Shown: positions 2,817-61,608 of the stretch, one piece after another
Position numbering within the stretch: the stretch's first letter is position 1
Layout: the number at the start of each line of letters is the position of its first letter
Assembly: GCA_945865755.1 (NCBI GenBank)
Contig: CAMBFS010000003.1
Span: 1 to 64,000 of the forward strand
Source of the DNA: Klebsiella pneumoniae
Lineage (GTDB): Bacteria > Desulfobacterota > Binatia > Bin18
Reading direction: 5' to 3'
Length of the DNA stretch: 64,000 bases
Notes under the pieces: model-generated
Database searches by the model: none
What the model saw: the letters and a program-made list of their open reading frames with translations, nothing else
What the model was told of the DNA's origin: nothing
Position numbers and translations under genes: made by a program

Positions 2817-2850
2817 GAACGGAGAACGGAGGGCACGAGCGGTCGTGCCC

Positions 2851-5800
2851 TCACATGCGTAACTCCTCCAACAACGCCTTCGCCTCCCGCAAATCCGCGG
2901 TATCAAATCCCTCGGTGAACCAGTTATAGACCTCGGATAACATCTGGTGAGCCTCCTGCTGCTTGCCTTGTTGTTGCCACAAGCGAGCTAAACTCATCGT
3001 CGCACGGAGTTCCCAGGACTTGGCGCTTTGCTGGCGAGCAATGGCGATGGCTTTGTGGAAACACTCCTCTGCCTCCGCCTGGGTGTTGGGTGCTAGGGGC
3101 TGGGGGCTGGGGTTTTCTAATTTTCGACTTTTGCTTTCCTGCGCTAGCAGGAGCTCGCCTTTGAGTTGATACAACTCCGCATCAAGCCAGCAGTTGCCGG
3201 TTTCGCGTGACAGGGTAAGCGCTTCTTCGGCGAGATCCAACGCTTCGTCAATGCGTCCGGCTTTCTCGTGAATTTCGATGGATAATGCCAACGAATACGC
3301 GAGCGATTGTTCGGCTCCTGAGGCACGAACCATCGCTACGTCCCGACATATTTGCGTAACGCCCTGCTCTGCATACCCAGTCTTGGCCAATCTCCACGCG
3401 CGAAAATGATTAGCAAGGGTGATGAGAAAGGCAAATCCTTGCTCTGTGGCCAATCCCTGAAACTCTTCTGCTGTTTCGCGGAGCGCCAGCTCATCGCCCC
3501 GCCATCGATGAGCCATGGTCGCGCCAAGGAGAGCGAATCCGAGGGTGAAAAGGTGCCCCTGCTGACGGGCAAGCGCCACTGCCGCTTGTGCTTTTTTCCA
3601 TGCTTGTTCTGGGTAGCCAGCGATCCATAGGGCTGCGGATAAAAGGGTGAGACACAATCCCCCGGGATCTTGCCCGTACAGAAAAGCGTGGTGCCGGTGT
3701 TGCCGTGGATCGTAGAGAGTCAACGCCTGGTCAAAAGAATGTCGACTGCCCAAGAGTTCTCCCTGAAAAAGTAGGATTTGGCCCAGAAATTTGTAGGCTT
3801 CCAGTAGAAGAACCGGGTTCTGCGTCTGTTGTGCCAGAGGGAGACTTCGTTCAATCAGGGTACGTGCAGTGCCGAGCTTTGCGCGTACCACATAGAATAT
3901 GGCCAAGCCATGTAACACCGGGAACAGATGGGGAGTGTTGCCGAGTTGTTCGCAAAGCGTATGCGCGCGTGAATAGGCCCGCTCCATCTCCACGGCGGCG
4001 AACCCCTTGACGTTCATGAACGCAGCCCCCAACGGCATCAATAAGCTTAACTCGAGGTGAATACGTTCCGGGCTGTCCGGGAGCTGCGTGAGGAGGTCCA
4101 GTGCGGTGGTGAGATGTCCAATTGCTTCTTGAGCCGCACTCCGTCCCAACGCGGTACGCCCCGCTTGGCCGTGATACTGCACGGCACGGGGATAGTCGCG
4201 GGCTTGCTCAAAGTGCACCGCTAAGGCTGCCGCAATCTCTTCTGCTCGGTCCCCGTACCCTTGCTCTAACCGCGCGCCAATCTGTTGATGGACCTGTAGT
4301 CGCTGACTCGGCGTCACCCGTTCATACAGCACGTCGTGATACAACGCATGGCGAAAACTGTAGCGGGCACTGGTCGTGCCATCGGGCCACTGGGTTGTGC
4401 CGGTGGCGCGCACAAAGTGCTCGCGGCGGGCGAGGTTGGCACAGTGCTCTTCGACCGTGGTGACGGAGAGCGCAAGACTGGGCGCAATGGTTGCTGCCGC
4501 GAACTCCATCCCCACCGCACTGGCCGTGACGAGTAGCTGGTGCTCGTCGGTACTGAGCTGATCAATCTGCCGCTCAATCATTTGCCGAATCGTCGCGGGG
4601 ACACTGAGCGACGCGTGGCTCCCCTCCTCACTCGTCGTGGCGTGACGCAGCAGGAGATCCTCGACGACGTTGACCATGAACAAAGGGTTGCCACTGGTGC
4701 GGTGGTGAATCGTGCGGGCGAGCGGTTGTAGGGGCATGGCCCGGATCGCCAGATACTCCTCTACCGTAGCCTCGGTCAGGAGCGGCACTGGCAGTTCGAC
4801 ACTGTGGCGATGAAGGGCCAAGTCCTGGGTTAATGTCCGCAGGGGATGGCCATTGCCGAGCACTTCCATGGGCCGATAGGTGCCGAGCACCAAGAGCCGC
4901 GCGGGGTGTCGCCGCCGCGCCAGGAACGAGAGGGCATCCAGGGTCGAGGGATCACTCCAGTGCAAGTCTTCCAGCGTCAGGACCAGGACGGTGTCCCGCG
5001 TCAGGGCTTCGAGGCCCTCGGCCAACTCCCGGAGCATCCGCTCGCGGGTGGCCCCAAAGGTGTGGACCTGCAACGCCGCCCGATCCGCCGGAGTGGCTAA
5101 CGCGGACAACTGCATCAACCACGTCGGCGCGTACTGCCGCAACGTCGTCACCAGGCGGTCTTGCGCTGGGCCACGGCCGAGTTCCCCCAACGCCGCGAGC
5201 AGCGGCAGATAGGGTTCGCCAGGGCCGAACTGCTCGATGCACTGGCCCTGGGCAAGCCAGGGGTTGGGGGTCAGGGGTCGGGGATCGGGGGTTGGAGACA
5301 GTTCGGAGTTCGGGGTTCGGAGTTGAGGACCTGGAATCTTGGACTTTGGATTCGTGTTGACTCCGAACGGTTCATGACTCTGTACTCCGAACACAAAGGC
5401 ATCGAGGAGCGCGGTCTTGCCAATCCCCGGCTCGCCGGTGACGAAAACAATCTGGCGTTCACCGCTCCGGGCTTTCTCGAGGAGTTGGTGGAGGTGCGAG
5501 AGTTCGGCGGCTCGTCCGACCAGGGGAGGTGCTGGGTGTTGGGGGCTAGGGGCTGGTTCGAATGTTGGACCTTGGACCTTCGACCTTGGACCTTGGACTG
5601 GGCCGATAAACCGAAACCCGCGTCGATGCACCGTCTCGAGGTACTGCGGCGCACGGGCACTGTCACCGAACACACGACGCAGTTCGCGGATACACACGGT
5701 CAGGGCCGCTTCGCTCACAATCGTGCTCGGCCACACGCTCCGCAGGAGTTCCTCTTTGGTCACCACTTGCCCTGGGCGGGCAAGCAAGTACCGCAGCACG

Positions 5801-5904
5801 GCAAAGGCTTTGGGCGTGACCCGCAGCTCGTGGGCGTCGTTGTGGATGGTGTGATTGTCCCAATCCACGCGGAAGGGGCCAAAGTCGACTGTTTCTGAAG
5901 CCAT
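2851..5904 (-). CDS. transcriptional regulator paralog 1: OmpR/PhoB-type winged helix + STAND (NB-ARC/AAA_16) ATPase + TPR array
   Basis: N-terminal trans_reg_C-like wHTH (…LRVTPKAFAVLRYL…RRGFRF); Walker A GEPGIGKT; Walker B LVLEDLHWSD; long TPR region; conserved C-terminal cap …VYNWFTEGFDTADL…; ATG at 5904 7 nt after AAGGGAG SD (GTG at 5907 also possible). Confidence 0.85.
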   Translation of the reverse strand: MASETVDFGPFRVDWDNHTIHNDAHELRVTPKAFAVLRYLLARPGQVVTKEELLRSVWPSTIVSEAALTVCIRELRRVFGDSARAPQYLETVHRRGFRFIGPVQGPRSKVQGPTFEPAPSPQHPAPPLVGRAAELSHLHQLLEKARSGERQIVFVTGEPGIGKTALLDAFVFGVQSHEPFGVNTNPKSKIPGPQLRTPNSELSPTPDPRPLTPNPWLAQGQCIEQFGPGEPYLPLLAALGELGRGPAQDRLVTTLRQYAPTWLMQLSALATPADRAALQVHTFGATRERMLRELAEGLEALTRDTVLVLTLEDLHWSDPSTLDALSFLARRRHPARLLVLGTYRPMEVLGNGHPLRTLTQDLALHRHSVELPVPLLTEATVEEYLAIRAMPLQPLARTIHHRTSGNPLFMVNVVEDLLLRHATTSEEGSHASLSVPATIRQMIERQIDQLSTDEHQLLVTASAVGMEFAAATIAPSLALSVTTVEEHCANLARREHFVRATGTTQWPDGTTSARYSFRHALYHDVLYERVTPSQRLQVHQQIGARLEQGYGDRAEEIAAALAVHFEQARDYPRAVQYHGQAGRTALGRSAAQEAIGHLTTALDLLTQLPDSPERIHLELSLLMPLGAAFMNVKGFAAVEMERAYSRAHTLCEQLGNTPHLFPVLHGLAIFYVVRAKLGTARTLIERSLPLAQQTQNPVLLLEAYKFLGQILLFQGELLGSRHSFDQALTLYDPRQHRHHAFLYGQDPGGLCLTLLSAALWIAGYPEQAWKKAQAAVALARQQGHLFTLGFALLGATMAHRWRGDELALRETAEEFQGLATEQGFAFLITLANHFRAWRLAKTGYAEQGVTQICRDVAMVRASGAEQSLAYSLALSIEIHEKAGRIDEALDLAEEALTLSRETGNCWLDAELYQLKGELLLAQESKSRKLENPSPQPLAPNTQAEAEECFHKAIAIARQQSAKSWELRATMSLARLWQQQGKQQEAHQMLSEVYNWFTEGFDTADLREAKALLEELRM

Positions 5905-8837: not shown

Positions 8838-8921
8838 AAAGCTTACGGCAAAAGTGCGCGGAAAGAAATCTGGTAATCATGGGCAGGTGTCAACCCGTCA
8901 CTCACTCGCTGACTCAATCTC

Positions 8922-11726
8922 TCACTGGCTCAATGCTACAAGCAACGCCTTCGCGTCCTGCAAATCCGCGGTATCAAATCCCTCGGTGAACCAGTTATAG
9001 GCCTCGGATAACATCAGGTGAGCCTCGTGCTGCTTGCCTTGTTGTTGCCACAAGCGAGCTAAACTCATCGTCGCGCGGAGTTCCCAGGACTTGGCGCTTT
9101 GCTGGCGGGCGATGGCGATGGCTTTGTGGAAACACTCCTCCGCTTCCGCCTGGGTGTTGGGTGCTAGGGGCTGGGGGCTGGGGTTTTCTAATTTTTGACT
9201 TTTGCTTTTTGACTTTTGACTTTTGCTTTCCTGCGCCAGTAGGAGTTCGCCTTTGAGTCGATACAACTCCGCCTCATACGACCGCTCTCCAGTCTGCTCT
9301 AAAGCAGCGAGCGCTTGCGTAATCGTTGTCAGTGCCTCCGAAATCTTCCCCGCCTTACTATACGCATCTGCCAGGAAAGAGAGCAGAACAGGTTCAAGGA
9401 CTCTAAACCCTACTGCCGAAAAGAGATCAAGCGCCTGACGAATCTGTGTGATGCCTTCTACGGTTTTCCCTTGTTGCGCGTCTAGCCATCCTTGATGCAG
9501 TGTTGCGACCGTGACATAGGCCGGGATGCTTTGTTCTTGGGCAACGGTAGTTAGTTCCCGTTGCCCCTCCTCTACCGCCTGCCCTTCTCTCCGAAAAATG
9601 GACAGGGTCATCGCCGTGCTTAACGTTCCAAGCAGTGAAAGGGCATGCGACGTTTCCCTGGCTAGGGAAAGGGCTTCTTGAGTTCTTTTGCTTGCTTGAT
9701 CTGGATATCCCAGAGTCCATAATACGGCAGCGGTATAGGTGAGGCAGAAGACGCCAGGTTCATGGCCATAGAGAAAGGTATGTCCACGGTGTTGTTGTGG
9801 GTTATAGAGACGGAGCCCACCCTCTAAATGAGTCTGAGCCGAATGTTGATCTCCGATATGATGGAGCACATGGCCCCTGGAGCGGTGCGCTTCGAGCAAG
9901 AGGCTAGGCTCCTGGAAGCGCACCGCGAGAGTGAGGCACTGCTCACTGAGTGATAACGCGACTGAGAATTGCCCTCGTACGACATGGTAGACGACCAAAC
10001 CCAGCAGGATGGGAAAGATGTGGGGCGAATCCTCTAGCTCTTCACACAATGTTCGGGCACGAAAATAAGCCCGTTCCACTTCAGGAACGCTGTAGCCTTT
10101 AGCGTTCATCACCGCGACGCCCAGTGCCATTTGCAGGGGCAATTCTTGTTGGTTGCGTTCAACCGAGGCTGGAAGATGGTTGAGGAGATCGAGCGCCGTC
10201 GTCAGATGTACGCTCGCCTCCTGTGACGCGTTACGACGTAAGGCGCTCTGTCCAGCCACCCCGTGATACCGCACGGCACGGGGATAGTCGCGGGCTTGCT
10301 CAAAGTGCCCGGCTAAGGCCGCGGCAATCTCTTCCGCGCGGTCCCCGTACCCTTGCTCTAATCGCTCGCCAATCTGTTGATGTACTTGGAGCCGCCGACT
10401 CGGCGTCACCCGTTCATAGAGCACGTCGTGATACAACGCATGGCGAAAACTGTAGCGGGCACTGGTCGTGCCATCGGGCCACTGCGTTGTACCGGTGGCG
10501 CGCACAAAGTGCTCGCGGCGGGCGAGGCTGGCACAGTGCTCTTCGACCGTGGTGACGGAGCGCGCAAGACTGGGCGCAATGGTGGCCGCCGCGAACTCCG
10601 TCCCCACCGCACTGGCCGTGACGAGTAGCTGGTGCTCGTCGGTACTGAGCTGATCAATCTGCCGTTCGAGCATCTGCCGAATCGTCGCGGGGACATTGAG
10701 CGGAGCCTGGGCTGGGCCGTCATTCGTGGCGGGACCATGCAGGAGTAAGTCCTCGACGACGTTGACCATAAACAGCGGATTGCCACTGGTGCGGTGGTGA
10801 ATCGTGCGAGCGAGCGGTTGCAGGGGCCTTGCCCGGATCGCCAGATACTCCGCTACCGCGGCCTCGGTCAGGAGCGGCACGGGCAGTTCAACACTGTGGC
10901 GATGAATGGCCAAGTCTTGGGTTAATGTCCGCAGGGGATGGCCATTGCCGAGCACTTCCGTGGGCCGATAGGTGCCGAGCACCAAGAGCCGCGCGGGGTG
11001 TCGCCGCCGCGCCAGGAACGAGAGGGCATCCTGGGTCGAAGGATCACTCCAGTGCAAGTCCTCCAGCGTCAGTATCAGGACGGTGTCCCGCGTCAGGGCT
11101 TCGAGGCCCTCGGCCAACTCCCGGAGCATCCGCTCGCGGGTGGCCCCAAAGGTGTGGACCTGCAACGCCGCCCGATCCGCCGGAGTGGCTAACGCGGACA
11201 ACTGCATTAACCACGTCGGCGCGTACTGCCGCAACGTCGTCACCAGGCGGTCTTGCGTTGGGCCACGGCCGAGTTCCCCGAACGCCGCGAGCAGCGGCAG
11301 ATAGGGTTCACCGGGGCCGAACTGCTCGATGCACTGGCCGTGCGCGATGAAGACCGGTGCGCGGGGCTGGGGGTTTGGGGCCGAAGAAGACAAGGACTGA
11401 GGACTGCGGGCTGAGGACTGCGGGCCGGAGACCTTTGCCTTTTGCGGGTCGCTTTTCTTCTCGGTCCCGGACTCCGGCCACAAAGACCTCAAGCAGGGAG
11501 GTCTTGCCGATCCCCGGCTCACCCGTGACAAAGACAATCTGGCGTTCGCCATCCAGGGCTTTCTCCAACCGGCCATGAAGTTGTTCCAGCTCGGACGCAC
11601 GCCCCACCAGATTGGGGGCGGGGTCAAATGTTGGACTTGGGACCTTCGACCTTGGACTTGGGACTGGGCCGATAAACCGAAACCCGCGCCGATGCACCGT
11701 CTCGATGTACCGCGGGGTACGGGCAC
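8922..11726 (-). CDS. regulator paralog 2 (wHTH+STAND+TPR), C-terminal reading frame; homologous sequence begins ~11354 (…VFIAHGQCIEQFGPGEPYLPLL…)
   Basis: ~95% nt identity to paralog 1 over the NB-ARC remainder and over the last ~330 bp; divergent TPR middle; first ~125 codons of this ORF overlap the other frame and are probably not translated. Confidence 0.6.
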   Translation of the reverse strand: MPVPRGTSRRCIGAGFGLSAQSQVQGRRSQVQHLTPPPIWWGVRPSWNNFMAGWRKPWMANARLSLSRVSRGSARPPCLRSLWPESGTEKKSDPQKAKVSGPQSSARSPQSLSSSAPNPQPRAPVFIAHGQCIEQFGPGEPYLPLLAAFGELGRGPTQDRLVTTLRQYAPTWLMQLSALATPADRAALQVHTFGATRERMLRELAEGLEALTRDTVLILTLEDLHWSDPSTQDALSFLARRRHPARLLVLGTYRPTEVLGNGHPLRTLTQDLAIHRHSVELPVPLLTEAAVAEYLAIRARPLQPLARTIHHRTSGNPLFMVNVVEDLLLHGPATNDGPAQAPLNVPATIRQMLERQIDQLSTDEHQLLVTASAVGTEFAAATIAPSLARSVTTVEEHCASLARREHFVRATGTTQWPDGTTSARYSFRHALYHDVLYERVTPSRRLQVHQQIGERLEQGYGDRAEEIAAALAGHFEQARDYPRAVRYHGVAGQSALRRNASQEASVHLTTALDLLNHLPASVERNQQELPLQMALGVAVMNAKGYSVPEVERAYFRARTLCEELEDSPHIFPILLGLVVYHVVRGQFSVALSLSEQCLTLAVRFQEPSLLLEAHRSRGHVLHHIGDQHSAQTHLEGGLRLYNPQQHRGHTFLYGHEPGVFCLTYTAAVLWTLGYPDQASKRTQEALSLARETSHALSLLGTLSTAMTLSIFRREGQAVEEGQRELTTVAQEQSIPAYVTVATLHQGWLDAQQGKTVEGITQIRQALDLFSAVGFRVLEPVLLSFLADAYSKAGKISEALTTITQALAALEQTGERSYEAELYRLKGELLLAQESKSQKSKSKSQKLENPSPQPLAPNTQAEAEECFHKAIAIARQQSAKSWELRATMSLARLWQQQGKQHEAHLMLSEAYNWFTEGFDTADLQDAKALLVALSQ

Positions 11727-11970
11727 TATCCCCCAAAACCCGGCGGAGTTCCCGGATACACACCGTCAACGCCGCGTCGCTCACAATCGTGCTCGGCCAC
11801 ACGGTGAGCAGGAGTTCCTCTTTGGTCGCCACTTGCCCTGGGCGGGCAAGCAGATACCGCAGCACGGCAAAGGCTTTGGGCGTGACCCGCAGCTCGTGGG
11901 CGTCGTCGCGGAGGGTGTGACTCTGGAGGTCGACGCGAAAATGTCCAAATGCGACCGTCTCTGGCGTCAT
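11308..11970 (-). CDS. regulator paralog 2, N-terminal reading frame (OmpR-type wHTH + Walker A GEPGIGKT), terminating inside repeat linker
   Basis: near-identical to N-terminus of paralog 1; ATG at 11970 after GAGGAAA SD; frame is lost relative to the downstream ORF in the GGACTGAGGACTGCGGGCT repeat tract (~11390-11445). Confidence 0.6.
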   Translation of the reverse strand: MTPETVAFGHFRVDLQSHTLRDDAHELRVTPKAFAVLRYLLARPGQVATKEELLLTVWPSTIVSDAALTVCIRELRRVLGDSARTPRYIETVHRRGFRFIGPVPSPRSKVPSPTFDPAPNLVGRASELEQLHGRLEKALDGERQIVFVTGEPGIGKTSLLEVFVAGVRDREEKRPAKGKGLRPAVLSPQSSVLVFFGPKPPAPRTGLHRARPVHRAVRPR

Positions 11971-16326: not shown

Positions 16327-16396
16327 TGCTCCCGATGAGCAATGGTATGAAGTTGAGGCAGGTGCTGTCCTGGGAGTAGGGGCGTCCTGGGAGTAG

Positions 16397-16418
16397 GGGC
16401 GAAAAATTTTTCGCCCCT
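16397..16418. terminator. perfect palindrome GGGGCGAAAAATTTTTCGCCCC between convergent genes (bidirectional terminator)
   Basis: 11-bp perfect-stem palindrome with A/T tract on both sides; preceded by duplicated GTCCTGGGAGTAGGGGC. Confidence 0.6.
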
Positions 16419-16430
16419 ACAGCAGCACCC

Positions 16431-19479: not shown

Positions 19480-20364
19480 ATGAAAGTTGGATTTTTTGCT
19501 ATTGGTATTGGCCCCGCCGCCGAGCCCGATCTCATCGCGCTCACCGCGCAGACCGCGGAGCAGTGCGGATTTTATTCTCTCTGGGCTCCCGAACATGTGG
19601 TCTTGATTGACAACTATCTCTCGAAGTACCCGTATTCCAAGGATGGGCGGTTACCGATGCCGACCACCAAGATCGACATTCTCGATCCCTACATCGCGCT
19701 GACCTACGCGGCGGCACTGACCAAAACCATTCGCCTTGGCACCGGCATCAGCCTCATTCCCGAACGGAGCCCGGTGGTCACCGCCAAGGAGATTGCCAGT
19801 CTCGATAAGCTTTCCGGTGGACGGTTTGATCTCGGTGTTGGAGTGGGCTGGCTGGAAGAGGAGTTTGCCGCGGTGCAGGTGCCGTGGGATCGGCGTGGGG
19901 ACCGGACGCGTGAGTATCTCCAGGCGATGAAGAATCTGTGGACGGAAGAGATATCGGAGTTCAAGGGCGAGTTCTGTAGCTTCCCGAAAGTGCGGATGTA
20001 TCCCAAGCCGGTGCAGAAACCGTATCCGCCCATCGTGTTTGGTGGCGAGAGCACGCCAGCGCTCAAGCGGGTCGCGGAAATTGGCGATGGTTGGTTTGGC
20101 GTGAACGTGACCCCAGAAGATGCGGCGGCGAAAATCGCGCGGATCAAGCAGTATGCGCAAGCGGCGGGACGTGGCAGTGTGAAGTTCTCGTTCGCCATTT
20201 CACCGGGCATCGGCTCACCCATTGAAATGGATATGGTGAAACGCTACCGCGACGCGGGTGTGGATCAAGTGATCGCGGGTGGAATTCCCAGTGACCCGAC
20301 ACAGGCGAAAGCGGAGATCGAACGGCTCGCGGAGAAACTCGTGGTGCCGTCGGCGAAACTGTAG
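19480..20364 (+). CDS. LLM-class F420/flavin-dependent oxidoreductase
   Basis: luciferase-like TIM-barrel family; starts 4 nt after FtrC-like stop with GAGGAG SD. Confidence 0.8.
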   Translation: MKVGFFAIGIGPAAEPDLIALTAQTAEQCGFYSLWAPEHVVLIDNYLSKYPYSKDGRLPMPTTKIDILDPYIALTYAAALTKTIRLGTGISLIPERSPVVTAKEIASLDKLSGGRFDLGVGVGWLEEEFAAVQVPWDRRGDRTREYLQAMKNLWTEEISEFKGEFCSFPKVRMYPKPVQKPYPPIVFGGESTPALKRVAEIGDGWFGVNVTPEDAAAKIARIKQYAQAAGRGSVKFSFAISPGIGSPIEMDMVKRYRDAGVDQVIAGGIPSDPTQAKAEIERLAEKLVVPSAKL

Positions 20365-20638
20365 GAAGGGGAGTTGGGGGCAGTTGAAGGCAGTTGGGGA
20401 CAGTTTAGGGCAGTTGGGGACAGTTTAGGGCAGTTGGAGGCAGTTTAGGGCAGTTAGGGACAGTCGGGAACAGTGCTCAGTCCCTCAAGCCCTTGTTGTT
20501 CTAACTCCGAAATCCCAACTGCCTTCAACTGCCCTGAACTGTTTTCAACTGCCCCTAACTGCTTTCAACTGTCCCCAACTGTCCCCAACTGTCCCCAACT
20601 GCCCCCAACTGCCCCCAAGCCCCCAAGCCCCCAACTGT
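20365..20638. repeat. intergenic inverted tandem arrays: ~10 x GCAGTTGRRG then ~12 x CYYCAACTGC (reverse complements), filling the entire gap between two stop codons
   Basis: direct reading: cagttgggggcagttgaaggcagttgggga… then …caactgccttcaactgccctgaactg…ccccaactgtccccaactg. Confidence 0.8.
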
Positions 20639-23115: not shown

Positions 23116-23206
23116 ACGACCTCCTTTTGATGAAGCCTGTGGTGCAGGGAGATCAGATGGTATAGCGCAGAATTGGGCGGGTTGGCGAGCGCCGGTGCCT
23201 ACAAGA

Positions 23207-23411
23207 GCAATGGCATTAAGTTAAGGAAGTTTTTGTCGCAGGGGAAATCACCCCCACGCCGCCCCTTGCCGGGGACTGAACTCCCCGGCTACCCTCATGG
23301 CCTCGCTCCGCGAGGCCAGAGACGCCGCAGAGCGGCGTATGAGGGTAGCCGGGGGTTTCAACCCCCGGTTTGCTGCGAGCGGCGACTTTCGGCTTAACTT
23401 AATGCCATTGC
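23207..23411. mobile_element. MITE-like element copy A (205 bp; TIR GCAATGGCATTAAGTTAAG / CTTAACTTAATGCCATTGC; flanked by ~ACAAGA duplication)
   Basis: terminal inverted repeats read directly; internal long self-complementary arms (CCGGGGGTTTCAACCCCCGG, GCTACCCTCA…TGAGGGTAGC); same element at 29821..30025. Confidence 0.7.
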
Positions 23412-23468
23412 CCACAAGAGGAGGTGCGCACCGTGCTGGGATTTCTGGTGGTCATCCTAGCCTATCGC

Positions 23469-25769
23469 CTAAATATCTTCCTCTCCCGCGCTCTTCGGTG
23501 TCGCCGCATCCTCGCTGGAGGCTTGGACGCGCACGGGTGCTGGCGGGAATTGATCCAGATGCTGGTGCACATGAGTAATTAGCCGATTGGCGACTTCCGT
23601 CGCGTCCTGCTCCGCGTATTCGTGCTCAAGCTGCTCCCACAACGCGTGCGCTTGGTGCGTGTCGTCTTCCTCAATCTGTCGCAGTACCGCGCTGAGCGCA
23701 TCGGGGGTTTCTGGTAGGCGTTTGTTGGGGAACACCGCCAGTGACTGTTCGATCCGAATTCTGGCTTGTGTCGCCCCAATCCGTTCCAAGCCAGCCAACA
23801 CCGTTGGGATTTTCTCGCCATCGTTCTCGAAGAATTGGTGAAACCCAACCACGAGGAATTTCGTATTGAACCAGTGCAAATCCCATAACAGCCGTTCATC
23901 TTCCGTCATCTGTGTCAGCACGTAGGTGTGCGACGCGGGATCGCAGGGCAGCTTCGCTTGAAGCTGTTGGACAATGTTCAGCACCGTGAACGTGGGATAT
24001 GGCGCTTCTTCGCTCAGGATTTCTTGAAGCGGTTTTTCCTTGACCCGAGACCGCGTGGTCACGCAGTGGGTGGGATCCATCGTGGCGACTGTTTCTTGAA
24101 AGTTTCCGATCGTGGTTTTCACCCCGATATACAGAGGCACCAGCAAAGAGACGGCGTACACCGTGCCACCAGCGAACATCGTGCGCCAGGTCGCTGGTCC
24201 AGTGGTCAGGTGGCGCAGCAGAGTCTTGGCGAGCTCGTAGCGAGTGGCGGACGGGTGTTGATGGAAGGGGGGGTGTGTCAACACTTGGAAAATCGCGTGC
24301 AGCCGCTCGGGGCGCGTCGTTGGTGTTGTTCCCAATTTGTGTAGTCGTCGTAGCGCGACGTTGACCCGCCATTGCGCGAGGAGTGTTGCTCCCACGGCGA
24401 TGGCGACACCAAGCATCAGACTCGATCCCGTCAGTCCGAGCAGCAACAAGATCACCACGCTGATTGATCCGAAAGCAAACCGTATCCACGGAAACCGACT
24501 CAAGAGCAACTCAACAACACGACCACCATCGAAAGGACTGATGGGGAGCAGGTTGAGATAGTTGAGCGAGACGGCCATCCACCCCACTTCGTTGAGCCAT
24601 GATGCGCTCTCTGGCGGAGCGAACTGCAAACAGACCATACCGAGCATCAGTCCTGGCACGGGGCCCAGCAGGAGGACGATGATCTGTTGCATCGGGGTCG
24701 CATCTTCTTTTTCCCCGGTCACCGCGGCTCCTAGAAAGGGGATGAAAAACATCTGGCGGTCACGATAGTCAAATATGCGCATCCCAAACCAATGTCCCAG
24801 TTCATGAAAGAACAGCACCCCGATCAGCACTGGGACGAAGGACCACGACCACATCAATCCGAAGGACACGGCTGCCACCGCGACACTCACGAGCAGGAGG
24901 GCACATTTGCCCAGCCAGCTCCATCCTGGAACCGACCGTTGAATTTCCTGCGTCCGCTCGAATGCCGCTACTTCACTCACAATCTGAGGGGAGGCTTCTC
25001 CCTGCGCGTTCATTGGAGCAAGTCGCGCGTCTGGCATTGTCTTGTGGGCTTTCTGCGTCGCCTTCATCACGCGAGTCCGCTTTTTCATGCCTTGGAGCAG
25101 GTCCCACACGAAACCGAGAGCGGGCAGCGGGCGCAGTCGCCACGAATTGCCGTCCGAAGCCGGAGTCAGGAGAGCGTTCTCAGTCATGTAATCTTGCATG
25201 AATGAATTATTGTACTCAATGAACGCGTCTGGTGAACACGGCATGGCCGTGCGATCTTCGAGCGCCTTCCCAATTCTCCGTTGGTGCTCCTGCCATTGGC
25301 GTTCGAGGTTGCCGACATAATAGTCAGCGAATCGGCACCAGTGTGGACATGGGGACATATCGTGCAGTTGACAGTCCACCGTCACCAGCGCGCGGCCATT
25401 CTTCAGCTCAGTGATGAAAGAGACATTGAATAGCACCCCAGCTTCGGGCGAGAGGGTGGGAGTCACTTCGGCGTAGGTGTGACAATCCTCATGGAGAAAG
25501 AGCTGCGCGGGTTGCGGTTTTTCGTCATGGACAAGGATATTCTCATGTATGCTCGAATGGGAGTAACGAAAACCGAGCGGTGTCAGTTGTTGTTCCGCTG
25601 ACTGAAAGACTCCTACCATTTCCGCGGGCAACGCCTCGCGCGCTGTCAGCGTACTGTGCGGTCTCCGAAAACGGCATCGTAAGAGGCGAGTCCAAACAAT
25701 GAAAACTTGGATGGCTTTAATCGCGATGAAAAAAGCAAAAAGGGTGAGAGCCAGTGTCAGCAGTTCCAT
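23469..25769 (-). CDS. membrane metalloprotease, peptidase M50 (site-2 protease) core with large extra N- and C-terminal domains
   Basis: HELGHW (HExxH) in TM helix and LNLLPISPFDGG (LDG-type) motif; N-terminal TM anchor + ~270-aa Cys/His-containing domain; ~270-aa C-terminal domain. Confidence 0.6.
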   Translation of the reverse strand: MELLTLALTLFAFFIAIKAIQVFIVWTRLLRCRFRRPHSTLTAREALPAEMVGVFQSAEQQLTPLGFRYSHSSIHENILVHDEKPQPAQLFLHEDCHTYAEVTPTLSPEAGVLFNVSFITELKNGRALVTVDCQLHDMSPCPHWCRFADYYVGNLERQWQEHQRRIGKALEDRTAMPCSPDAFIEYNNSFMQDYMTENALLTPASDGNSWRLRPLPALGFVWDLLQGMKKRTRVMKATQKAHKTMPDARLAPMNAQGEASPQIVSEVAAFERTQEIQRSVPGWSWLGKCALLLVSVAVAAVSFGLMWSWSFVPVLIGVLFFHELGHWFGMRIFDYRDRQMFFIPFLGAAVTGEKEDATPMQQIIVLLLGPVPGLMLGMVCLQFAPPESASWLNEVGWMAVSLNYLNLLPISPFDGGRVVELLLSRFPWIRFAFGSISVVILLLLGLTGSSLMLGVAIAVGATLLAQWRVNVALRRLHKLGTTPTTRPERLHAIFQVLTHPPFHQHPSATRYELAKTLLRHLTTGPATWRTMFAGGTVYAVSLLVPLYIGVKTTIGNFQETVATMDPTHCVTTRSRVKEKPLQEILSEEAPYPTFTVLNIVQQLQAKLPCDPASHTYVLTQMTEDERLLWDLHWFNTKFLVVGFHQFFENDGEKIPTVLAGLERIGATQARIRIEQSLAVFPNKRLPETPDALSAVLRQIEEDDTHQAHALWEQLEHEYAEQDATEVANRLITHVHQHLDQFPPAPVRVQASSEDAATPKSAGEEDI

Positions 25770-25988
25770 GAAGTATTCCCTCGATAATCCTGGGAGACTC
25801 CGGTTGTATCGGCGAGGAAGGGCGGAACTATAACCCCAGTCATGGAGGGCGACGCGGGATCAAAGCTACGTAGGGTGGGTCGAGCCCCACCCTACTACTC
25901 GATAGGTGTTGAGGAGTGGCCGGACTCTAGGACATTGCGTGGGGAGTTGCAAACAGCAGGAAAGCGGGTTGCGCATGAACATGCGGCT

Positions 25989-26417
25989 TTATGGCTGAAG
26001 CCAATCTTCCACCCGTAATCCCGGCACCTGTTGAAAATCGTTCATATTTCGAGACAACAAGATGCCACCAGAAACCAAAACAATCGTGGCGATTTTGAGG
26101 TCCATAGTCCCAATGCGAATCCCGTGTTGACGCAAACGTTTGAACTCGTCGGCAGCGTGCTGGTCAAATGACAAAATCCGCCAGTCAGCAAAGAACTCGA
26201 AGAGTCCGGTAAGACGTTCATAATAGGAGACTTGCCGATGAACATCGGGGTGGCGACGAATGAGTGCCAACCACCCTCGAGTTTGTTCTTCGAGGGTAAT
26301 CGCGGTGGTTGCCATCTCTTCTATTGGCTGGGCTTCCAATCGAGTTTGCAAAGCGAATGCGCGTGGCGCATCGCGATACTGAAGAGCGGAAATGTGATCG
26401 GTATCCAGGATAATCAT
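25989..26417 (-). CDS. vapC: PIN-domain toxin (VapC-like)
   Basis: MIILDTDHISALQY… PIN N-terminus with conserved acidic residues; 4-bp overlap with upstream small gene. Confidence 0.7.
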   Translation of the reverse strand: MIILDTDHISALQYRDAPRAFALQTRLEAQPIEEMATTAITLEEQTRGWLALIRRHPDVHRQVSYYERLTGLFEFFADWRILSFDQHAADEFKRLRQHGIRIGTMDLKIATIVLVSGGILLSRNMNDFQQVPGLRVEDWLQP

Positions 26418-29686: not shown

Positions 29687-29820
29687 AGGTCATCCTTATG
29701 TCTTGTGAACAATATCGCCTTCTCGAAATACGCGAGGATTTAGCATGTTGTTGGTGTGAGGGGCCACCACCTCGTATCACGAAGCAGAGACGTTGTTTCC
29801 AGGTTCCCTCTCCCGGATGG

Positions 29821-30025
29821 GCAATGGCATTAAGTTAAGCCGAAGCGTCACTGCTCGCTGCGAGCCGGGGGTAAAACCCCCGGCTACCATCCACAGCCCC
29901 TCCGGGGCTGATCGACACACCCCAGCGGGGTGTTTGGAGGGTAGCCAGGGGTAGGACTCCTGGCGAATGGCGGCGAGGGGGCAGCTTCCAGCATAACAAA
30001 AACTCCCTTAACTTAATGCCATTGC
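29821..30025. mobile_element. MITE-like element copy B (205 bp) inserted in loop of a 40-bp palindromic element with perfect 8-bp TSD CCGGATGG
   Basis: same TIRs as copy A (opposite orientation); flanks …tccctctcccggatgg | element | ccggatgggagagggtcagggtgaggggg. Confidence 0.75.
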
Positions 30026-30027
30026 CC

Positions 30028-30057
30028 GGATGGGAGAGGGTCAGGGTGAGGGGGAGC
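30028..30057. repeat. right half of REP-like palindromic element R1 split by MITE copy B (left half 29803..29820)
   Basis: removing element plus one TSD copy restores TCCCTCTCCCGGATGGGAGAGGGTCAGGGTGAGGGGG. Confidence 0.65.
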
Positions 30058-30106
30058 TGAATGTGATTACCGAGCCACGCCCTACCGCTGGCCCGGGAAA
30101 AGACAA

Positions 30107-30466
30107 TCATGTGCTTGCCAAAAGTGCATACTCGGCATTTTTATTGATGGTGTTCGCTTCCGCGGTTGCGCGCGCTAACCGGCGGTCTAGTTCCGTGACA
30201 ATGTCGGCATTGCCCGCCTGCGCGATTTTAATTTCGACCGTTCCTCCCGCTAATACTTGGTGCAACGCTTCCAGGACTGGCTTGAGGTCGGGATTCACGG
30301 CGATATTGCCCAGTGCCCCTTCCAGAGCCCCCAACTGCAGCAATCGCATCTGGTAGGCATAGCCGTTCGCGGTGGTCTCGCGGGTCACCAGTTTTGGGAC
30401 TCCGACTTCAATAAGGTTCTCCTGAGCGATCTCCATATATTCCGTGTGGGCTGCTGCGTAACTCAT
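30107..30466 (-). CDS. hypothetical small protein (119 aa), divergent from regulator paralog 3
   Basis: ORF with good coding look; no assignable motif. Confidence 0.4.
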   Translation of the reverse strand: MSYAAAHTEYMEIAQENLIEVGVPKLVTRETTANGYAYQMRLLQLGALEGALGNIAVNPDLKPVLEALHQVLAGGTVEIKIAQAGNADIVTELDRRLARATAEANTINKNAEYALLAST

Positions 30467-37309: not shown

Positions 37310-37337
37310 AAGTCAAAAGTCAAAAGTCAAAAGTCAA
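37310..37337. repeat. (AAGTCAA)4 heptamer microsatellite in ABC-F upstream region
   Basis: read directly. Confidence 0.8.
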
Positions 37338-37445
37338 AAATAAGAAACAGCGCTGTAGCCCGGATGGAACGGAGTGGAATCCGGGGTCCTGCCGCTTTCC
37401 CCCGCGCCTTCCTGGATTACGCTTCGCTTCATCCAGGCTACTCGC

Positions 37446-37545
37446 TGACTACTGACTACTGACTACTGACTACTGACTACTGACTACTGACTACTGACTA
37501 CTGACTACTGACTACTGACTACTGACTACTGACTACTGACTACTG
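37446..37545. repeat. (TGACTAC)14 perfect heptamer microsatellite
   Basis: 14 perfect units read directly, 80 bp upstream of 37628 start. Confidence 0.9.
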
Positions 37546-37627
37546 TTCCCCTATCTTTGCCTTTTGCCTTCTGATTTTCCCTTGAGAGCCTTGTGCGAAC
37601 ACCGAGGATTTCCTACACTGCGCGGCC

Positions 37628-43297: not shown

Positions 43298-43412
43298 GAA
43301 AGTATCGCTTCAGGAGAGTGTGTAAATTTGCCCGCACCTAAACAGTGCCAAAGAAAGGTGTCAAGAAGGGCGATTGGCTCATCATCAGTTGTGATACGCA
43401 CAACAAGAAGCA

Positions 43413-43555
43413 CACCGGGGGTTGAAACCCCCGGCTACCCTCAAATGCCGCTCTGCGGCATGTTTGACCTCGCGGAGCGAGGCCATGAGGGTAGACGGGG
43501 AGTTCAGTCCCCGGCGCGAGGTGGCGTGGGGGCTTCCTTCACTTCATGCCATTGC
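43413..43555. mobile_element. MITE-like element copy C, 5'-truncated (right TIR CTTCACTTCATGCCATTGC retained), again abutting R1 right half
   Basis: aligns to reverse complement of copy A from CCGGGGGTTGAAACCCCC to right TIR. Confidence 0.6.
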
Positions 43556-43592
43556 CCGGCTGGGAGAGGGTCAGGGTGAGGGGGATCGAGTG
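43556..43592. repeat. R1 REP-like element right half (CCGGCTGGGAGAGGGTCAGGGTGAGGGGGAT)
   Basis: read directly; same as 30026..30057. Confidence 0.6.
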
Positions 43593-45371: not shown

Positions 45372-45477
45372 CCTACTGATTTTTGCTCAGCCGAGCAAGG
45401 GAACGAAGGCGGGAGTCAAAGGCGAAAGAGCGTCGATAAACAAGAGGATTTCGTGGGAAGACAGAGGGGTCTGAAAG

Positions 45478-45521
45478 TTCCCTCTCCCGGCTGGGAGAGG
45501 GCTAGGGTGAGGGGGATCAAG
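45478..45521. repeat. R1 REP-like palindromic element, intact copy (TTCCCTCTCCCGGCTGGGAGAGGGCTAGGGTGAGGGGGATCAAG)
   Basis: 8-bp stem CCCTCTCC/GGAGAGGG with 6-nt loop plus G-rich tail. Confidence 0.65.
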
Positions 45522-48605: not shown

Positions 48606-50246
48606 TTAGAAGCTCGTTAGCCGCCAGATTCCGTCGTCATCAATATGAAAGCGCACCTCAAAAGATTTGGTCATGGCGCCCGCAGGCCGGAGCATTTCAT
48701 AGCGCGCCTCACCGTCCCGAATCTCCTGGAGGCGAATCGTGGTTAAAATGGTGTCAATGTCTGGAAACGGCGGGGTCAGGGTCTGGAAGACCTCTTGATA
48801 CCGAGCACGCGACCTGCTCCCAATGTGGGTCAGCGCTTGCGCAATGTCTTCCCGCTGTAAGGCGTCTTTGAGCGCGTGCCACTTTGCTTGCAACAGTGCG
48901 TCCAGTGCGTTTGCGTCGAACACTTGGACAATAGTGCGCACTGTGCGTTTCCCTTGTGTCGTGGTAACGCTCGCGGTTGGGAAGTAAAGCCCAGGTTGCG
49001 AATAGGTAAAGGACTGTTCCTCCAAGGTTGCGCCCTCGAAGTCGGTGTGCCCGTCTCCATCTGCATCAAGTGCCACATGCGTGGGCAGCGCACTCACGGA
49101 ACCGAGGGCAATCAGGGTAAAGGTTGTGCGCAAGGGGGCTTGCCCGCTTTCCGCGCTCGCACTCAGAAAAAGGGCGACATTGTCAGCAGGGAGAGTCGGG
49201 GTAATCGTGATCTCATCGTTCACTGCACTCACTCCCGCCCTCGTCGCTTGCGCGGTTAAGGTTGTTGTAACAGTGGTCACGGGAACGAGCAGCGCGAAAT
49301 TCTCCCCTTGTACAGCAGCAACAACACCGTTGACGGTCACTCCCATATCAGGGCCGCCTCCGGTCACTATTCCGCGCACCATTACCATGCCGGTGGGAAC
49401 GCTGCTGCCGTTCGTTGGCGCAGTAATCTGGACGTTGAGCGCTCTGGCAACTTGAAGCGTGATTCCCGGACCAGCATTCCCCGCCGCATCTTGCACAATC
49501 ACCGAAAATGAGTCTCCCGCTTGCGCTGCCACTGTCGCGGTAAAACTCCCATCACCAGCCGCCGTCACCGTCGAGACCTGTCCTGTGCGCGCGTTGGTGA
49601 TCCGCACCTGACTACCACCTTCCACACTGCCCGCCGTGCCACTGACCGTCACCTGTCCGTTGCTCACCGTCCCCACGGTGATGCGCCCGCTCTGTGGGGC
49701 CGCCGGCGGTGTCGTGTCAATCGTGACCTGTCGCGTCGCCGGGAGCGACACATTGCCCGCGAAGTCCGCGACCGTCGCGCTCAGCGCCACCGCCCCTTCC
49801 GGTAACGCGCTGCCTGGGCGGCAGGCCAACTCTGGCGGCGTGATCGTGCAGGGGCTGGGAAACACCACCGTATTCGCCCGCAGTTGCAGCGTGCTGGGGT
49901 CCACTCCTTGGCCGCGATCACTCGCGCTCAGCGTCAACGGCGGACGATTCGTGTTCAGCACCGCGCCCGCCGCTGGCGTGAGAAAACTCAGCGTCGGCGG
50001 CAACAAATCGGTGTACAGCACCAGCGCCCGCAACCGGGTCGTGCCAAAAGTGCGCGTGTGGACGACTTGGCCGGTGAGACGGTAATGGCGTAGCGTCGCA
50101 TCCCGCGCCACCCACGCCGTGTGATCCACCGGGTCCGCCGCCAGCGCGACCACACTCGAACTGTCGTCATCATCTCCGCCACTATTGGGCAGCGAGTAGC
50201 CTGGATGAAGCGGAGCGAAATCCAGGGAGGTGGGTGGGAAATCCAC
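48606..50246 (-). CDS. surface protein with bacterial Ig-like (Big) domains and a PKD-like domain
   Basis: repeated …VTVSGTAG…VRITNARTG…DGSFTATV… Ig-like strands; PKD-like FTYSQPGLY…VTTTQG; no obvious signal peptide at annotated start. Confidence 0.55.
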   Translation of the reverse strand: MDFPPTSLDFAPLHPGYSLPNSGGDDDDSSSVVALAADPVDHTAWVARDATLRHYRLTGQVVHTRTFGTTRLRALVLYTDLLPPTLSFLTPAAGAVLNTNRPPLTLSASDRGQGVDPSTLQLRANTVVFPSPCTITPPELACRPGSALPEGAVALSATVADFAGNVSLPATRQVTIDTTPPAAPQSGRITVGTVSNGQVTVSGTAGSVEGGSQVRITNARTGQVSTVTAAGDGSFTATVAAQAGDSFSVIVQDAAGNAGPGITLQVARALNVQITAPTNGSSVPTGMVMVRGIVTGGGPDMGVTVNGVVAAVQGENFALLVPVTTVTTTLTAQATRAGVSAVNDEITITPTLPADNVALFLSASAESGQAPLRTTFTLIALGSVSALPTHVALDADGDGHTDFEGATLEEQSFTYSQPGLYFPTASVTTTQGKRTVRTIVQVFDANALDALLQAKWHALKDALQREDIAQALTHIGSRSRARYQEVFQTLTPPFPDIDTILTTIRLQEIRDGEARYEMLRPAGAMTKSFEVRFHIDDDGIWRLTSF

Positions 50247-50317
50247 GGAGCATCCCGGATTCCACTCCGTTCCATCCGGGCTACGGGACTTGAGACTTGG
50301 ACCTTGGACGGTCTGCG

Positions 50318-60495: not shown

Positions 60496-60541
60496 CAATC
60501 CCCCTCACCCTAGCCCTCTCCCAGCCGGGAGAGGGAATTTT
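60496..60541. repeat. R1 REP-like palindromic element, intact copy in reverse orientation
   Basis: CCCCCTCACCCTAGCCCTCTCCCAGCCGGGAGAGGGAATTT = reverse complement of 45478..45521. Confidence 0.65.
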
Positions 60542-60678
60542 CGGAGCCCTCGAACTTCATACCATTGCCCAGCCGAGAGAGGGCCTTTCGGACTCCACAC
60601 GCTGAGTCCCGTTGCCCTCTCCGAGACTGGCCTGAGACTTGTCCTAGACTTGTTTGGGACTGGCCTGAGACTATCTCC

Positions 60679-61608
60679 CTATCCGCGCGGATGGAACTTT
60701 TTGTGCACTTCGCGCAGCCGTTCACTGGTGAGATGCGTATAAATCTGCGTCGTGGTGATATCCACATGTCCGAGCATCGCTTGGACGGCACGGAGGTCCG
60801 CGCCGCCGTCGAGGAGGTGCGTGGCGAACGCATGGCGCATGGCGTGCGGGTTGAATTTACCGCCTTCCGGGCTTTGCAGCGCGTAGTCCCTCAACAGTTT
60901 CCAAAAGGTCTGGCGGGAGAGTGGCTTGGCCACGCGTGAGAGAAAGACATACGCGCTGGTCCGCCCTTTCAATAATTGTGGCCTCGCCGCCGAGAAATAC
61001 TGCTCCAATTTGTCCTTCGCGCTCGACCCTACCGGCACCACCCGTTCCCGTCCCCCTTTGCCCCGCACCCGCACGAACCCCGCTTCGAGATGGAGTTGCT
61101 TGACCTCCAGCCCCACGAGTTCCGACACGCGCAATCCCGTCGCATAGAGCAATTCTAGCATCGCATGATCGCGGACCCCGGTCGGTGTGGATTCATCTGG
61201 CCGGTCCAACACGGCATCGACTTGCTGACGCGACGGGACTTGCGGCAGGTGTCGTCCAATCTTTGGTAAGAGTAAGTGAGAAGTTGGGTTACTGCCCGGC
61301 AGTGCCTCTTCTCGTTCGAGAAAGCGGTAGAACCGTCGCAGGGTCGTTAGGATGCGGGATTGACTCCGGGCGGAGAGTCCACGATCTCGTAACGTGCCAA
61401 GGAATCCCACCAGGTGGCGAGACCCGGCGGTCCGCAGTGTCGGTTCCGCCTGGGTCGCCATATAGCGACAGAACTCGGCGAGATCCCGGTAATAGGCTTC
61501 AATGGTGTTCCGCGAGAGTCCACGCTCGACGGTAAGATACGCGAGAAACTGGTCTACTTGCGTATCGTGCGCGGATGGCGAAGAGCCTGGCGATTGTTGA
61601 TCCCTCAT
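60679..61608 (-). CDS. xerD: site-specific tyrosine recombinase XerD
   Basis: …RDHAMLELLYATGLRVSELVGL…HAMRHAFATHLLDGGADLRAVQAMLGHVDITTTQIYTHLTSERLREVHKKFHPRG closely tracks E. coli XerD including C-terminal tail. Confidence 0.8.
   Translation of the reverse strand: MRDQQSPGSSPSAHDTQVDQFLAYLTVERGLSRNTIEAYYRDLAEFCRYMATQAEPTLRTAGSRHLVGFLGTLRDRGLSARSQSRILTTLRRFYRFLEREEALPGSNPTSHLLLPKIGRHLPQVPSRQQVDAVLDRPDESTPTGVRDHAMLELLYATGLRVSELVGLEVKQLHLEAGFVRVRGKGGRERVVPVGSSAKDKLEQYFSAARPQLLKGRTSAYVFLSRVAKPLSRQTFWKLLRDYALQSPEGGKFNPHAMRHAFATHLLDGGADLRAVQAMLGHVDITTTQIYTHLTSERLREVHKKFHPRG

Follow-up and report, generated by a model that had tools for sequence, protein, structure and literature searches.

The 64,000-nucleotide stretch analysed here (positions 1 to 64,000 of contig CAMBFS010000003.1, "the window") carries a family of short repeats, 203 bp long, with 18-bp terminal inverted repeats (TIRs; CAATGGCATTAAGTTAAG) and a 10-bp target duplication. 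We conclude that this repeat is very probably a non-autonomous MITE (miniature inverted-repeat transposable element) of the IS4 family, IS4 subgroup, mobilized by a transposase acting in trans. The element is ordinary in kind and is notable for the pair of hairpins inside it, which resemble repetitive extragenic palindromic (REP) sequences, and for its landing in the loop of another hairpin repeat. The observations behind this conclusion are the TIRs, the duplications, paralogous empty sites, the same TIR on IS4-type transposase genes in other genomes, a consensus target and the conservation of stems in the interior.

Copies, boundaries and target duplications

A first-pass annotation, made from the sequence alone, had reported two full-length copies (A and B) and a third that is truncated at its 5' end (C). 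All three stand, with the limits of C refined. The copies and their duplications are as follows.

23208..23410, minus strand: copy A, 203 bp, TIRs at 23208-23225 and 23393-23410, perfect TIR CAATGGCATTAAGTTAAG; aligns to B and C
23198..23207, no strand: left 10-bp duplication of A, CCTACAAGAG, 9/10 identical to 23411-23420
23411..23420, no strand: right 10-bp duplication of A, CCCACAAGAG
29822..30024, plus strand: copy B, 203 bp, subfamily 2, TIRs at 29822-29839 and 30007-30024
29812..29821, no strand: left 10-bp duplication of B, CCCGGATGGG, identical to 30025-30034; also forms the loop of the host hairpin repeat and the top of its stem (see below)
30025..30034, no strand: right 10-bp duplication of B, CCCGGATGGG
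43409..43554, plus strand: copy C, 5'-truncated, right TIR at 43537-43554 with 2 mismatches

Copies A and B are oppositely oriented, and the reverse complement of A aligns with B over its full length. Copy C is 90% identical to A across 124 nt. Its left ~40 nt are missing, as are the TIR, the duplication and the arm of the host repeat on that side, and there is an internal deletion of ~20 nt near its right end. The only open reading frames (ORFs) that overlap the MITE (23297-23578 and 29835-30110) have their start or end within the palindrome and show no conservation from copy to copy.

The first-pass boundaries placed the termini of A and B at GCAATGGCATTAAGTTAAG...CTTAACTTAATGCCATTGC, which gave two copies of 205 bp with 19-bp TIRs and 8-bp duplications. 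The 19-mer GCAATGGCATTAAGTTAAG does occur exactly four times in the window, at both ends of A and of B, and once more with 2 mismatches at 43537-43555, whereas 100 dinucleotide-preserving shuffles contained it 0.00 times on average. The TIRs of A and B match at 18/18 positions. Thus the equal length and the perfect TIRs were correctly described, but the ends require adjustment: the IS4-subgroup end consensus fits only if the element starts with CAATGG, one base inside the first-pass boundary. Across 46 other elements, the position next outside CAATGG is occupied by A, C, G or T and is duplicated; it is therefore part of the target and not of the element. Examples at atypical targets are found in loci L060 (CCCGGCTGGGA), L021 (CCCTCGCCCC), L059 (CGTTTAAGGGT) and L076 (GCCACTACGG). 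The TIR is accordingly 18 bp and the element 203 bp, and the 8-bp duplications that had been noted (CCGGATGG at B, ctACAAGA/ccACAAGA at A) are present but are only the inner 8 bp of 10-bp duplications. At copy A the two sides merge to CC[T/C]ACAAGAG.

Two other sets of boundaries were considered and rejected. A 19-bp TIR with an 8-bp duplication is contradicted by the outer base, which varies and is duplicated in L076, L060, L021 and L059. The same evidence speaks against a 21-bp TIR (GGGCAATGG...) with a 4-bp duplication, as do the 12-13 bp duplications in L072 and L095.

The terminal inverted repeat in other genomes and assignment to the IS4 family

A search for insertion sequences (ISs) that have matching TIRs and encode a transposase, proposed in the first-pass annotation, was productive. 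The exact 19-mer was searched for in one genome per species (GTDB) and was found in at least 102 stretches. Among the matches listed, its hosts include Acidobacteriota (Pyrinomonadaceae, Blastocatellia), metagenome-assembled genomes (MAGs) labelled 'Deltaproteobacteria', Firmicutes, Bacteroidota, Ignavibacteria, Cyanobacteriota, Chloroflexota, Proteobacteria and two archaeal MAGs (Jordarchaeia, Methanoperedens). The description of the element as novel therefore holds for this 203-bp family, which appears to be undescribed (no paper containing the TIR string was found in the library searched), but not for its TIR, which is widespread, nor for the kind of element, which is already known.

The 19-mer bounds two classes of element among these matches: (i) a short class of 63-400 bp with unrelated interiors, which amounts to dozens of MITE families in many phyla, and (ii) a long class of 1398-1631 bp, found in L072, L076, L095, L055 and L035, in which each element has a single ORF, 414-462 aa long (293 aa in L035). 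Three representative transposases from the long class match the IS4-family model NF033592 of NCBIfam with 150-186 bits against a cutoff of 115, and both of the two that were compared with Pfam match DDE_Tnp_1. The proteins of the long elements contain the Y-2-R-3-E-6-K motif (YGWRWGVETYFDRLK and YSMRWGIETSFRDLK), a feature of these partners and not of the MITE. They align with InsG of Escherichia coli IS4 across the catalytic region (E = 4e-17 and 1e-15), and their closest annotated plasmid relatives are labelled 'IS4 family' and 'IS4-like element ISPa1635 family'.

The IS4 subgroup is characterized by ends of the form -AATR--------WTW----, direct repeats of 10-13 bp and marked target specificity (De Palmenaer et al. 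2008, PMC2266710). The TIR CAATGGCATTAAGTTAAG has AATG at positions 2-5 and TTA at 14-16 and so agrees with the end consensus, and it shares 14/18 positions with the E. coli IS4 end (CAATGGCATTAAGTTAAG versus TAATGCCGATCAGTTAAG). The E. coli K-12 copy of IS4 ends in TAATGCCAGTCAGTTAAGC and TAATGCCGATCAGTTAAGG and has a 12-bp duplication. The ISPepr1 subgroup was rejected: its direct repeats are 7-8 bp, and its end consensus, YT-AA-YTT (PMC2266710), is incompatible with the TIR. The first-pass annotation had listed IS256, IS66, IS1 and IS4 as candidate families; the IS4-subgroup ends and the 10-bp duplication together remove the first three and leave IS4. In every respect that could be tested, the element is by its sequence to be classed as a MITE of the IS4 family, IS4 subgroup. 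It resembles E. coli IS4 and the subgroup in its homologous termini, end consensus, 10-13 bp repeats and marked target specificity, and in that its partner transposases are homologous to InsG and match NF033592. It differs in having no transposase gene, in its length (203 bp versus ~1.4 kb), in the preference of its TIR group for CCC-N4-5-GGG targets, and in that the partner transposases are just ~23% identical to InsG.

MITEs and mobile insertion cassettes derived from IS4-type elements, such as the MIC231 derivatives of IS231, retain only the ends of the IS and are mobilized in trans. Those cassettes belong to another IS4 subgroup and carry passenger genes or a deleted transposase gene, whereas the interior here is a REP-like doublet.

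Transposases that share the identical 19-mer are only 21-48% identical to each other (L095 versus L055, 21.5%; versus L076, 29.6%). The ends are thus far better conserved than the proteins, although the requirement for an exact match in the search inflates end conservation. The transposase stop codon sits inside the right TIR. Many MAG contigs stop ~100-140 nt from a TIR (L005, L012, L039, L052, L058, L070, L092, L098 and others). TIR-bounded MITEs evidently break short-read assemblies, and a high copy number in those genomes is therefore implied.

Members of the 203-bp family itself are present in relatives, where the first-pass annotation had suggested looking: in the MAGs JANMSE01 (L063, L075, L038, L080, L058, L098) and JABFSC01 (L079, L012), and on a metagenome contig (L128). 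The longer matches show 75-92% identity, with 84-92% for the family in the two MAGs, and a 65-nt fragment in L098 attains 97%. JANMSE01 also has a cognate transposase gene (L086), 48% identical to that of L095, with an exact TIR upstream.

Target choice and the host hairpin repeat

Among 49 TIR-bounded elements from the matches listed, 34 have a duplication with at most one mismatch when the terminus is set at 5'-CA; 19 of these duplications are 10 bp long, 11 are 11 bp, three are 12 bp and one is 13 bp. These 34 duplications start with CCC in 20 cases and end with GGG in 17. The preferred target is CCC-N4-5-GGG, frequently the top of a small GC hairpin.

In the window such a hairpin is supplied by a host repeat of ~60 nt, with the core GTTCCCTCTCCCGGCTGGGAGAGGG[CT/TC]AGGGTGAGGGGGA followed by a conserved tail. 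Its full form is TTCCCTCTCCCGGCTGGGAGAGGG-CTAGGGTGAGGGGGATCAAG..CTTTCCTTATTT, with a 7-bp stem, an 8-nt loop and no T-tail. Four occurrences bear on the insertions.

29803..29821, plus strand: left arm, split by copy B, GTTCCCTCTCCCGGATGGG, compared with intact GTTCCCTCTCCCGGCTGGGAGAGGGCTAGGGTGAGGGGGA; right arm and tail at 30025-30055
43555..43585, plus strand: right half beside copy C, CCCGGCTGGGAGAGGGTCAGGGTGAGGGGGA
45477..45516 (~60-nt repeat, 45457-45517), plus strand: intact unoccupied repeat, a paralogous empty site
60498..60540 (~60-nt repeat, 60498-60558), minus strand: second intact repeat, adjoining a solo variant TIR remnant at 60550-60567

Copy B splits the host repeat exactly in its loop, with the 10-mer CCCGGATGGG on either side; at copy C only the right half of the repeat is present. 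Apart from the host repeat, the flanks of the copies are unrelated. The case for insertion rests chiefly on the intact host repeats and the duplications. An empty allele at site A or B, which would have the 10-mer once, would read ...GGTGCCYACAAGAGGAGG... or ...TTCCCTCTCCCGGATGGGAGAGGG....

The host repeat is also found in L017, L034, L060, L075, L079 and L092. It is common to the MAGs JANMSE01 and JABFSC01 and is often occupied by MITEs with the same TIR; its loop is the preferred landing site of MITEs with this TIR. IS1397 and ISKpn1 are known to insert into the hairpins of REPs or of bacterial interspersed mosaic elements (BIMEs). The likeness lies in insertion into the loop of a repeated extragenic hairpin. 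The difference is that IS1397 and ISKpn1 belong to the IS3 family and make 3-4 bp duplications, whereas the element here belongs to the IS4 family and makes duplications of 10 bp.

Structure and conservation of the interior

The first-pass annotation had noted long self-complementary arms inside the element, and these are borne out by strong predicted folds. In copy A the interior is the following feature.

23269..23368, minus strand: inverted doublet of hairpin-CTACC modules, H1-CTACCCTCA-H2-H3-TGAGGGTAG-H1'

Both subfamilies follow one design: a hairpin H1 (CCGGGGGT-loop-ACCCCCGG), CTACC..., the small hairpins H2 and H3, ...GGTAG and H1'. Every copy has CCGGGGGTTGAAACCCCCGG-CTAC and its inverted partner, and in A and B the two inverted modules pair into one long hairpin. 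Folded as single-stranded DNA, the reverse complement of A has a predicted energy of -78.7 kcal/mol (z = -13.0) and B one of -65.8 kcal/mol (z = -9.5).

To examine stem conservation, nine copies (six from subfamily 1, three from subfamily 2) were aligned with anchors set by hand. Canonical pairs make up 94.6% of the 351 stem cells, and 11 of the 39 stem pairs are altered on both sides; when the 3' partner was shifted by 1-3 positions as a control, pairing fell to 37-46% and both-side changes to 0-2 pairs. This compensatory pattern is suggestive rather than decisive: few independent lineages are represented among the nine copies, from whose sequences the structure itself had been derived. G-T cells (3) and A-C cells (5) favour neither strand. 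The A-type strand has the same direction as transcription at A but the opposite one at C.

In the window and in all GTDB loci among the matches listed, the hairpin-CTAC module was found only inside TIR-bounded elements, and it is present in four of 46 complete MITEs with this TIR, all four of them members of this family. The element would therefore consist of IS4-type ends enclosing a captured doublet of REP type. Similarity between copies runs through the subterminal regions up to the TIRs. We infer that the interior is a captured inverted REP-like doublet and not a remnant of transposase-gene sequence.

The interior resembles two known kinds of sequence. Acido-Lenti-1 (RF01687) is a probable non-coding RNA with no assigned function, described from 89 instances (Weinberg et al. 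2010, PMC2864571). One half of the interior of copy A (23323-23368, minus strand) matches the full model (1-46) with 36.0 bits, just under the gathering threshold of 37, and copy B matches at 29865-29909 (plus strand) with 24.2 bits; copy C and the second halves gave no reported match in this search. At the gathering threshold Rfam had no match in the whole window. The alignment to the model and the seed sequences show that the interior half and Acido-Lenti-1 have in common two hairpins and a GCUAC-containing linker. Here, unlike in Acido-Lenti-1, the unit is an inverted doublet inside a transposon, and the host is neither Acidobacterium nor Lentisphaera according to the NCBI labels of the related MAGs.

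The second likeness is to GTAG-tagged REPs, hairpins abutted by CTAC or GTAG that often form inverted pairs and for which mobilization by REP-associated tyrosine transposases (RAYTs) has been hypothesized (PMC3733652). In Anabaena variabilis GTAG dimers (GTAG-15) are reported to lie inside longer palindromes (PMC3733652). Like such dimers and the REP doublets known as REPINs, the interior has two GC-rich inverted hairpins with GTAG/CTAC that form one long hairpin. It differs from REPINs in its 10-bp duplications and in that the doublet is never free of IS4-type TIRs in the window or the GTDB loci, and so is not dispersed there as a unit of its own. By sequence, then, the interior resembles both a REPIN and Acido-Lenti-1 and departs from each in one defining feature, the first in TIR-free dispersal and the second in the Rfam threshold.

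Relatives without TIRs were found in metagenomes. A scan for the H1-CTACC pattern, in which a variable gap covered the B-type module only, returned at least 120 stretches with 144 matches listed; IS4-type TIRs were found at two or three of these. The 128 unique matches include 88 with a second hairpin within 9 nt, mostly with the loop TCC, and 16 with an inverted partner (GGTAG and a hairpin) within 250 nt. The repeat in these stretches (L106-L225; for example, L119 7252-7370, L121, L127, L132 and L142) has the form CCGGNGGT..ACCNCCGG-CTACC-N4-5-small hairpin, often with another small hairpin before it and sometimes as inverted doublets, which is the architecture of GTAG-tagged REPs. Only one instance among the matches listed (L127, 42.8 bits) attains the Acido-Lenti-1 threshold, and Rfam therefore probably under-represents this class.

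A proposed mechanism and the points against it

In the mechanism that we favour, a DDE transposase of IS4 type would bind and cleave at the 18-bp TIRs CAATGGCATTAAGTTAAG. It would act in trans and come from a full-length IS, present either elsewhere in the genome or in its recent past. The target would be cut with a stagger of ~10 bp, and repair would generate the 10-bp duplications. The transposase would favour CCC-N4-5-GGG, and as the loop of the ~60-nt host hairpin repeat (TTCCCTCTCCCGGCTGGGAGAGGG...) offers this target, the MITE would gather inside that repeat. The interior would be a captured inverted hairpin-CTAC doublet of GTAG REP or REPIN type, related to Acido-Lenti-1. Mobilization in trans is proposed, and so is cut-and-paste transposition, the latter by analogy with other IS4-family elements.

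Several observations weigh against this account. No IS4-type transposase was found in the 64-kb window by tblastn with two of the transposases (E <= 1e-5), and as this search covered the window alone, it does not establish that the genome itself supplies a partner. The first-pass statement that no transposase is present thus holds for the IS4 type, but other families are only incompletely excluded. The sole partner found in a related MAG, L086, lacks a right TIR. The duplication of copy A has one mismatch, its target CCYACAAGAG only partly fits CCC...GGG, and 15 of the 49 surveyed TIR-bounded elements have no clean duplication. Empty sites, which the first-pass annotation had proposed to seek, were found as paralogous, intact host repeats in the window but not as orthologous sites: the best homologue of a flanking 766-aa protein is 57% identical and not syntenic. 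The first-pass reading of the element as a non-autonomous MITE with TIRs and target duplications is upheld.

Alternative explanations

Three other explanations of these repeats were weighed. One is that the mobile unit is the interior doublet itself, a REPIN that a RAYT-type Y1/HUH transposase would move in single-stranded DNA form, with the TIRs incidental. The REPIN architecture of the interior (hairpin and CTAC, then GTAG and hairpin, inverted), the abundance in metagenomes of TIR-less modules and doublets of the same design, and the GTAG dimers within the longer palindromes of A. variabilis would all fit. One TIR-less relative, in L180, lies ~35 nt from an ORF containing a Y1_Tnp-type (RAYT-like) gene (35.6 bits versus a cutoff of 23). 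However, that gene is also flanked by a different GTAG REP type, and no further RAYT gene was detected by tblastn with the L180 protein in ~120 loci. No ORF with a RAYT-type HUH/Y1 motif was found in the window by motif scan. In addition, the module is confined to TIR-bounded elements in the window and in all related-MAG loci, the similarity of the copies extends to the TIRs, and duplications lie outside the TIRs, whereas RAYT/IS200-type transposition makes none. We consider independent movement of the interior very improbable. In L180 (3300-4500), the RAYT-like coding region (~3739-4272) lies amid at least three different GTAG/CTAC-tagged hairpin repeats, including an Acido-Lenti-1-like doublet, and an ~85-nt block at 3353-3440 is duplicated at 3655-3720, on either side of the doublet.

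The repeat could instead act chiefly at the RNA level, as a gene for a structured RNA or as a cis-acting RNA element. On this reading it would be related to the Acido-Lenti-1 small RNA and kept for a host function such as mRNA stabilization or processing in an intergenic transcript. The first-pass annotation had raised a small RNA, and the near-threshold match of one interior half to the full Rfam model lends that idea only indirect support. The canonical pairing and the excess of both-side changes over shifted controls would also fit; copy A, lying between two co-directional genes, would be co-transcribed with them. Yet the orientation relative to flanking genes is inconsistent between A and C, G-T cells do not exceed A-C cells, and scans revealed no promoter-like or terminator-like site. 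A GTAG-tagged REP doublet is an equally good reading of the architecture. Compensatory changes in palindromes can also come from single-stranded DNA recognition or from template-switch correction, and nine copies in only two subfamilies represent few independent events. We consider an RNA with a host function very unlikely. That the copies are immobile, either Rho-independent terminators (also suggested at first pass) or plain segmental duplications, is hardly credible: GC-rich hairpins do lie downstream of genes, but no stem is followed by a T-tail, the flanks are unrelated apart from the host repeat, the TIR boundaries are precise and accompanied by duplications, and the same ends bound transposase genes elsewhere. 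The terminator suggestion is thereby dropped.

An extension of the IS4 MITE interpretation would make the element a two-tier chimera, in which a REPIN-type doublet, ordinarily a substrate for Y1/HUH enzymes of the RAYT type, was captured between IS4-type ends and then spread by DDE transposition. Acido-Lenti-1 would then be a widespread GTAG-tagged REP family and not an RNA gene, and its covariation would reflect recognition of single-stranded DNA hairpins. We put this forward tentatively, as an idea that is more doubtful than probable.

Implications

These results suggest a rule for annotating a so far unannotated repeat family of little-known MAG lineages: an end of IS4 type (18 bp), a duplication of 10-13 bp and a target of the form CCC-N4-5-GGG. 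The rule would class as IS4-derived MITEs hundreds of short repeats across many phyla, repeats of a kind that break MAG assemblies. In the nesting seen here a MITE with a REP-like doublet inside it targets a host repeat, which suggests how new MITE families can be assembled from captured intergenic hairpins, and Acido-Lenti-1 may deserve re-examination as DNA of REP type. No change to the general view of transposition follows; what goes beyond the routine is that repeats are nested, that one 19-mer end is so widespread and that Acido-Lenti-1 might be reinterpreted.

Genomic context and other repeats in the window

All three copies are intergenic, as had been stated at first pass, and lie between genes confirmed by Pfam. 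Copy A is flanked by co-directional genes for a DMP19/M50 protein and a family III coenzyme A-transferase, copy B by a 242-aa ORF and a 1099-aa AAA_16/Trans_reg_C regulator, and copy C by a class II aminoacyl-tRNA synthetase with an editing domain and a pyrroloquinoline quinone (PQQ) dehydrogenase.

Two solo diverged IS4-type ends (CAATGGTATGAAGTT...) are present at 16340-16430 and 60550-60600 (minus strand) and look like remnants of other MITE families after deletion. The first contains the following feature.

16340..16357, plus strand: solo diverged IS4-type end, CAATGGTATGAAGTTGAG, with a GTAG-hairpin-CTAC palindrome next to it and no matching right end; remnant of a different MITE

It is followed by a tandem duplication and the GTAG-GGGGCGAAAAATTTTTCGCCCC-CTAC palindrome, between convergent genes. 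A direct repeat of ~25 nt, which takes in the left half of the host hairpin repeat, flanks the second solo end. Adjoining this cluster of TIR remnant and host repeat is a XerC/D-like tyrosine recombinase gene (60679-61608, minus strand; Phage_integrase, 159 bits, with a SAM-like N-terminal domain).

Other repeats were also seen. A direct duplication of ~3 kb (2850-5848 versus 8921-11914, offset ~6.07-6.09 kb, ~60-93% identity by block) is probably a paralogous gene cluster. An inverted repeat at 20368-20624, intergenic after 19480-20364, has arms of ~100 nt with 78-83% complementarity, in which 10-nt tandem units (GGGGCAGTTG-like) face their complement. Tandem arrays occupy several intergenic regions (37431-37549, 37310-37347, 9185-9235, 5327-5350 and others), with CTGACTA repeated ~14 times and with TTTTGAC, GTCAAAA and GGACYTTGGA repeats. 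The segments 37355-37447 and 50190-50284 form an inverted repeat family, 88-94% complementary and unrelated to the MITE. Finally, an isolated perfect palindrome with GTAG/CTAC-like ends (GTAGTAGGGTGGGGCTCGACCCACCCTACGT) is found at 25873-25895, between 23469-25769 and 25989-26417.

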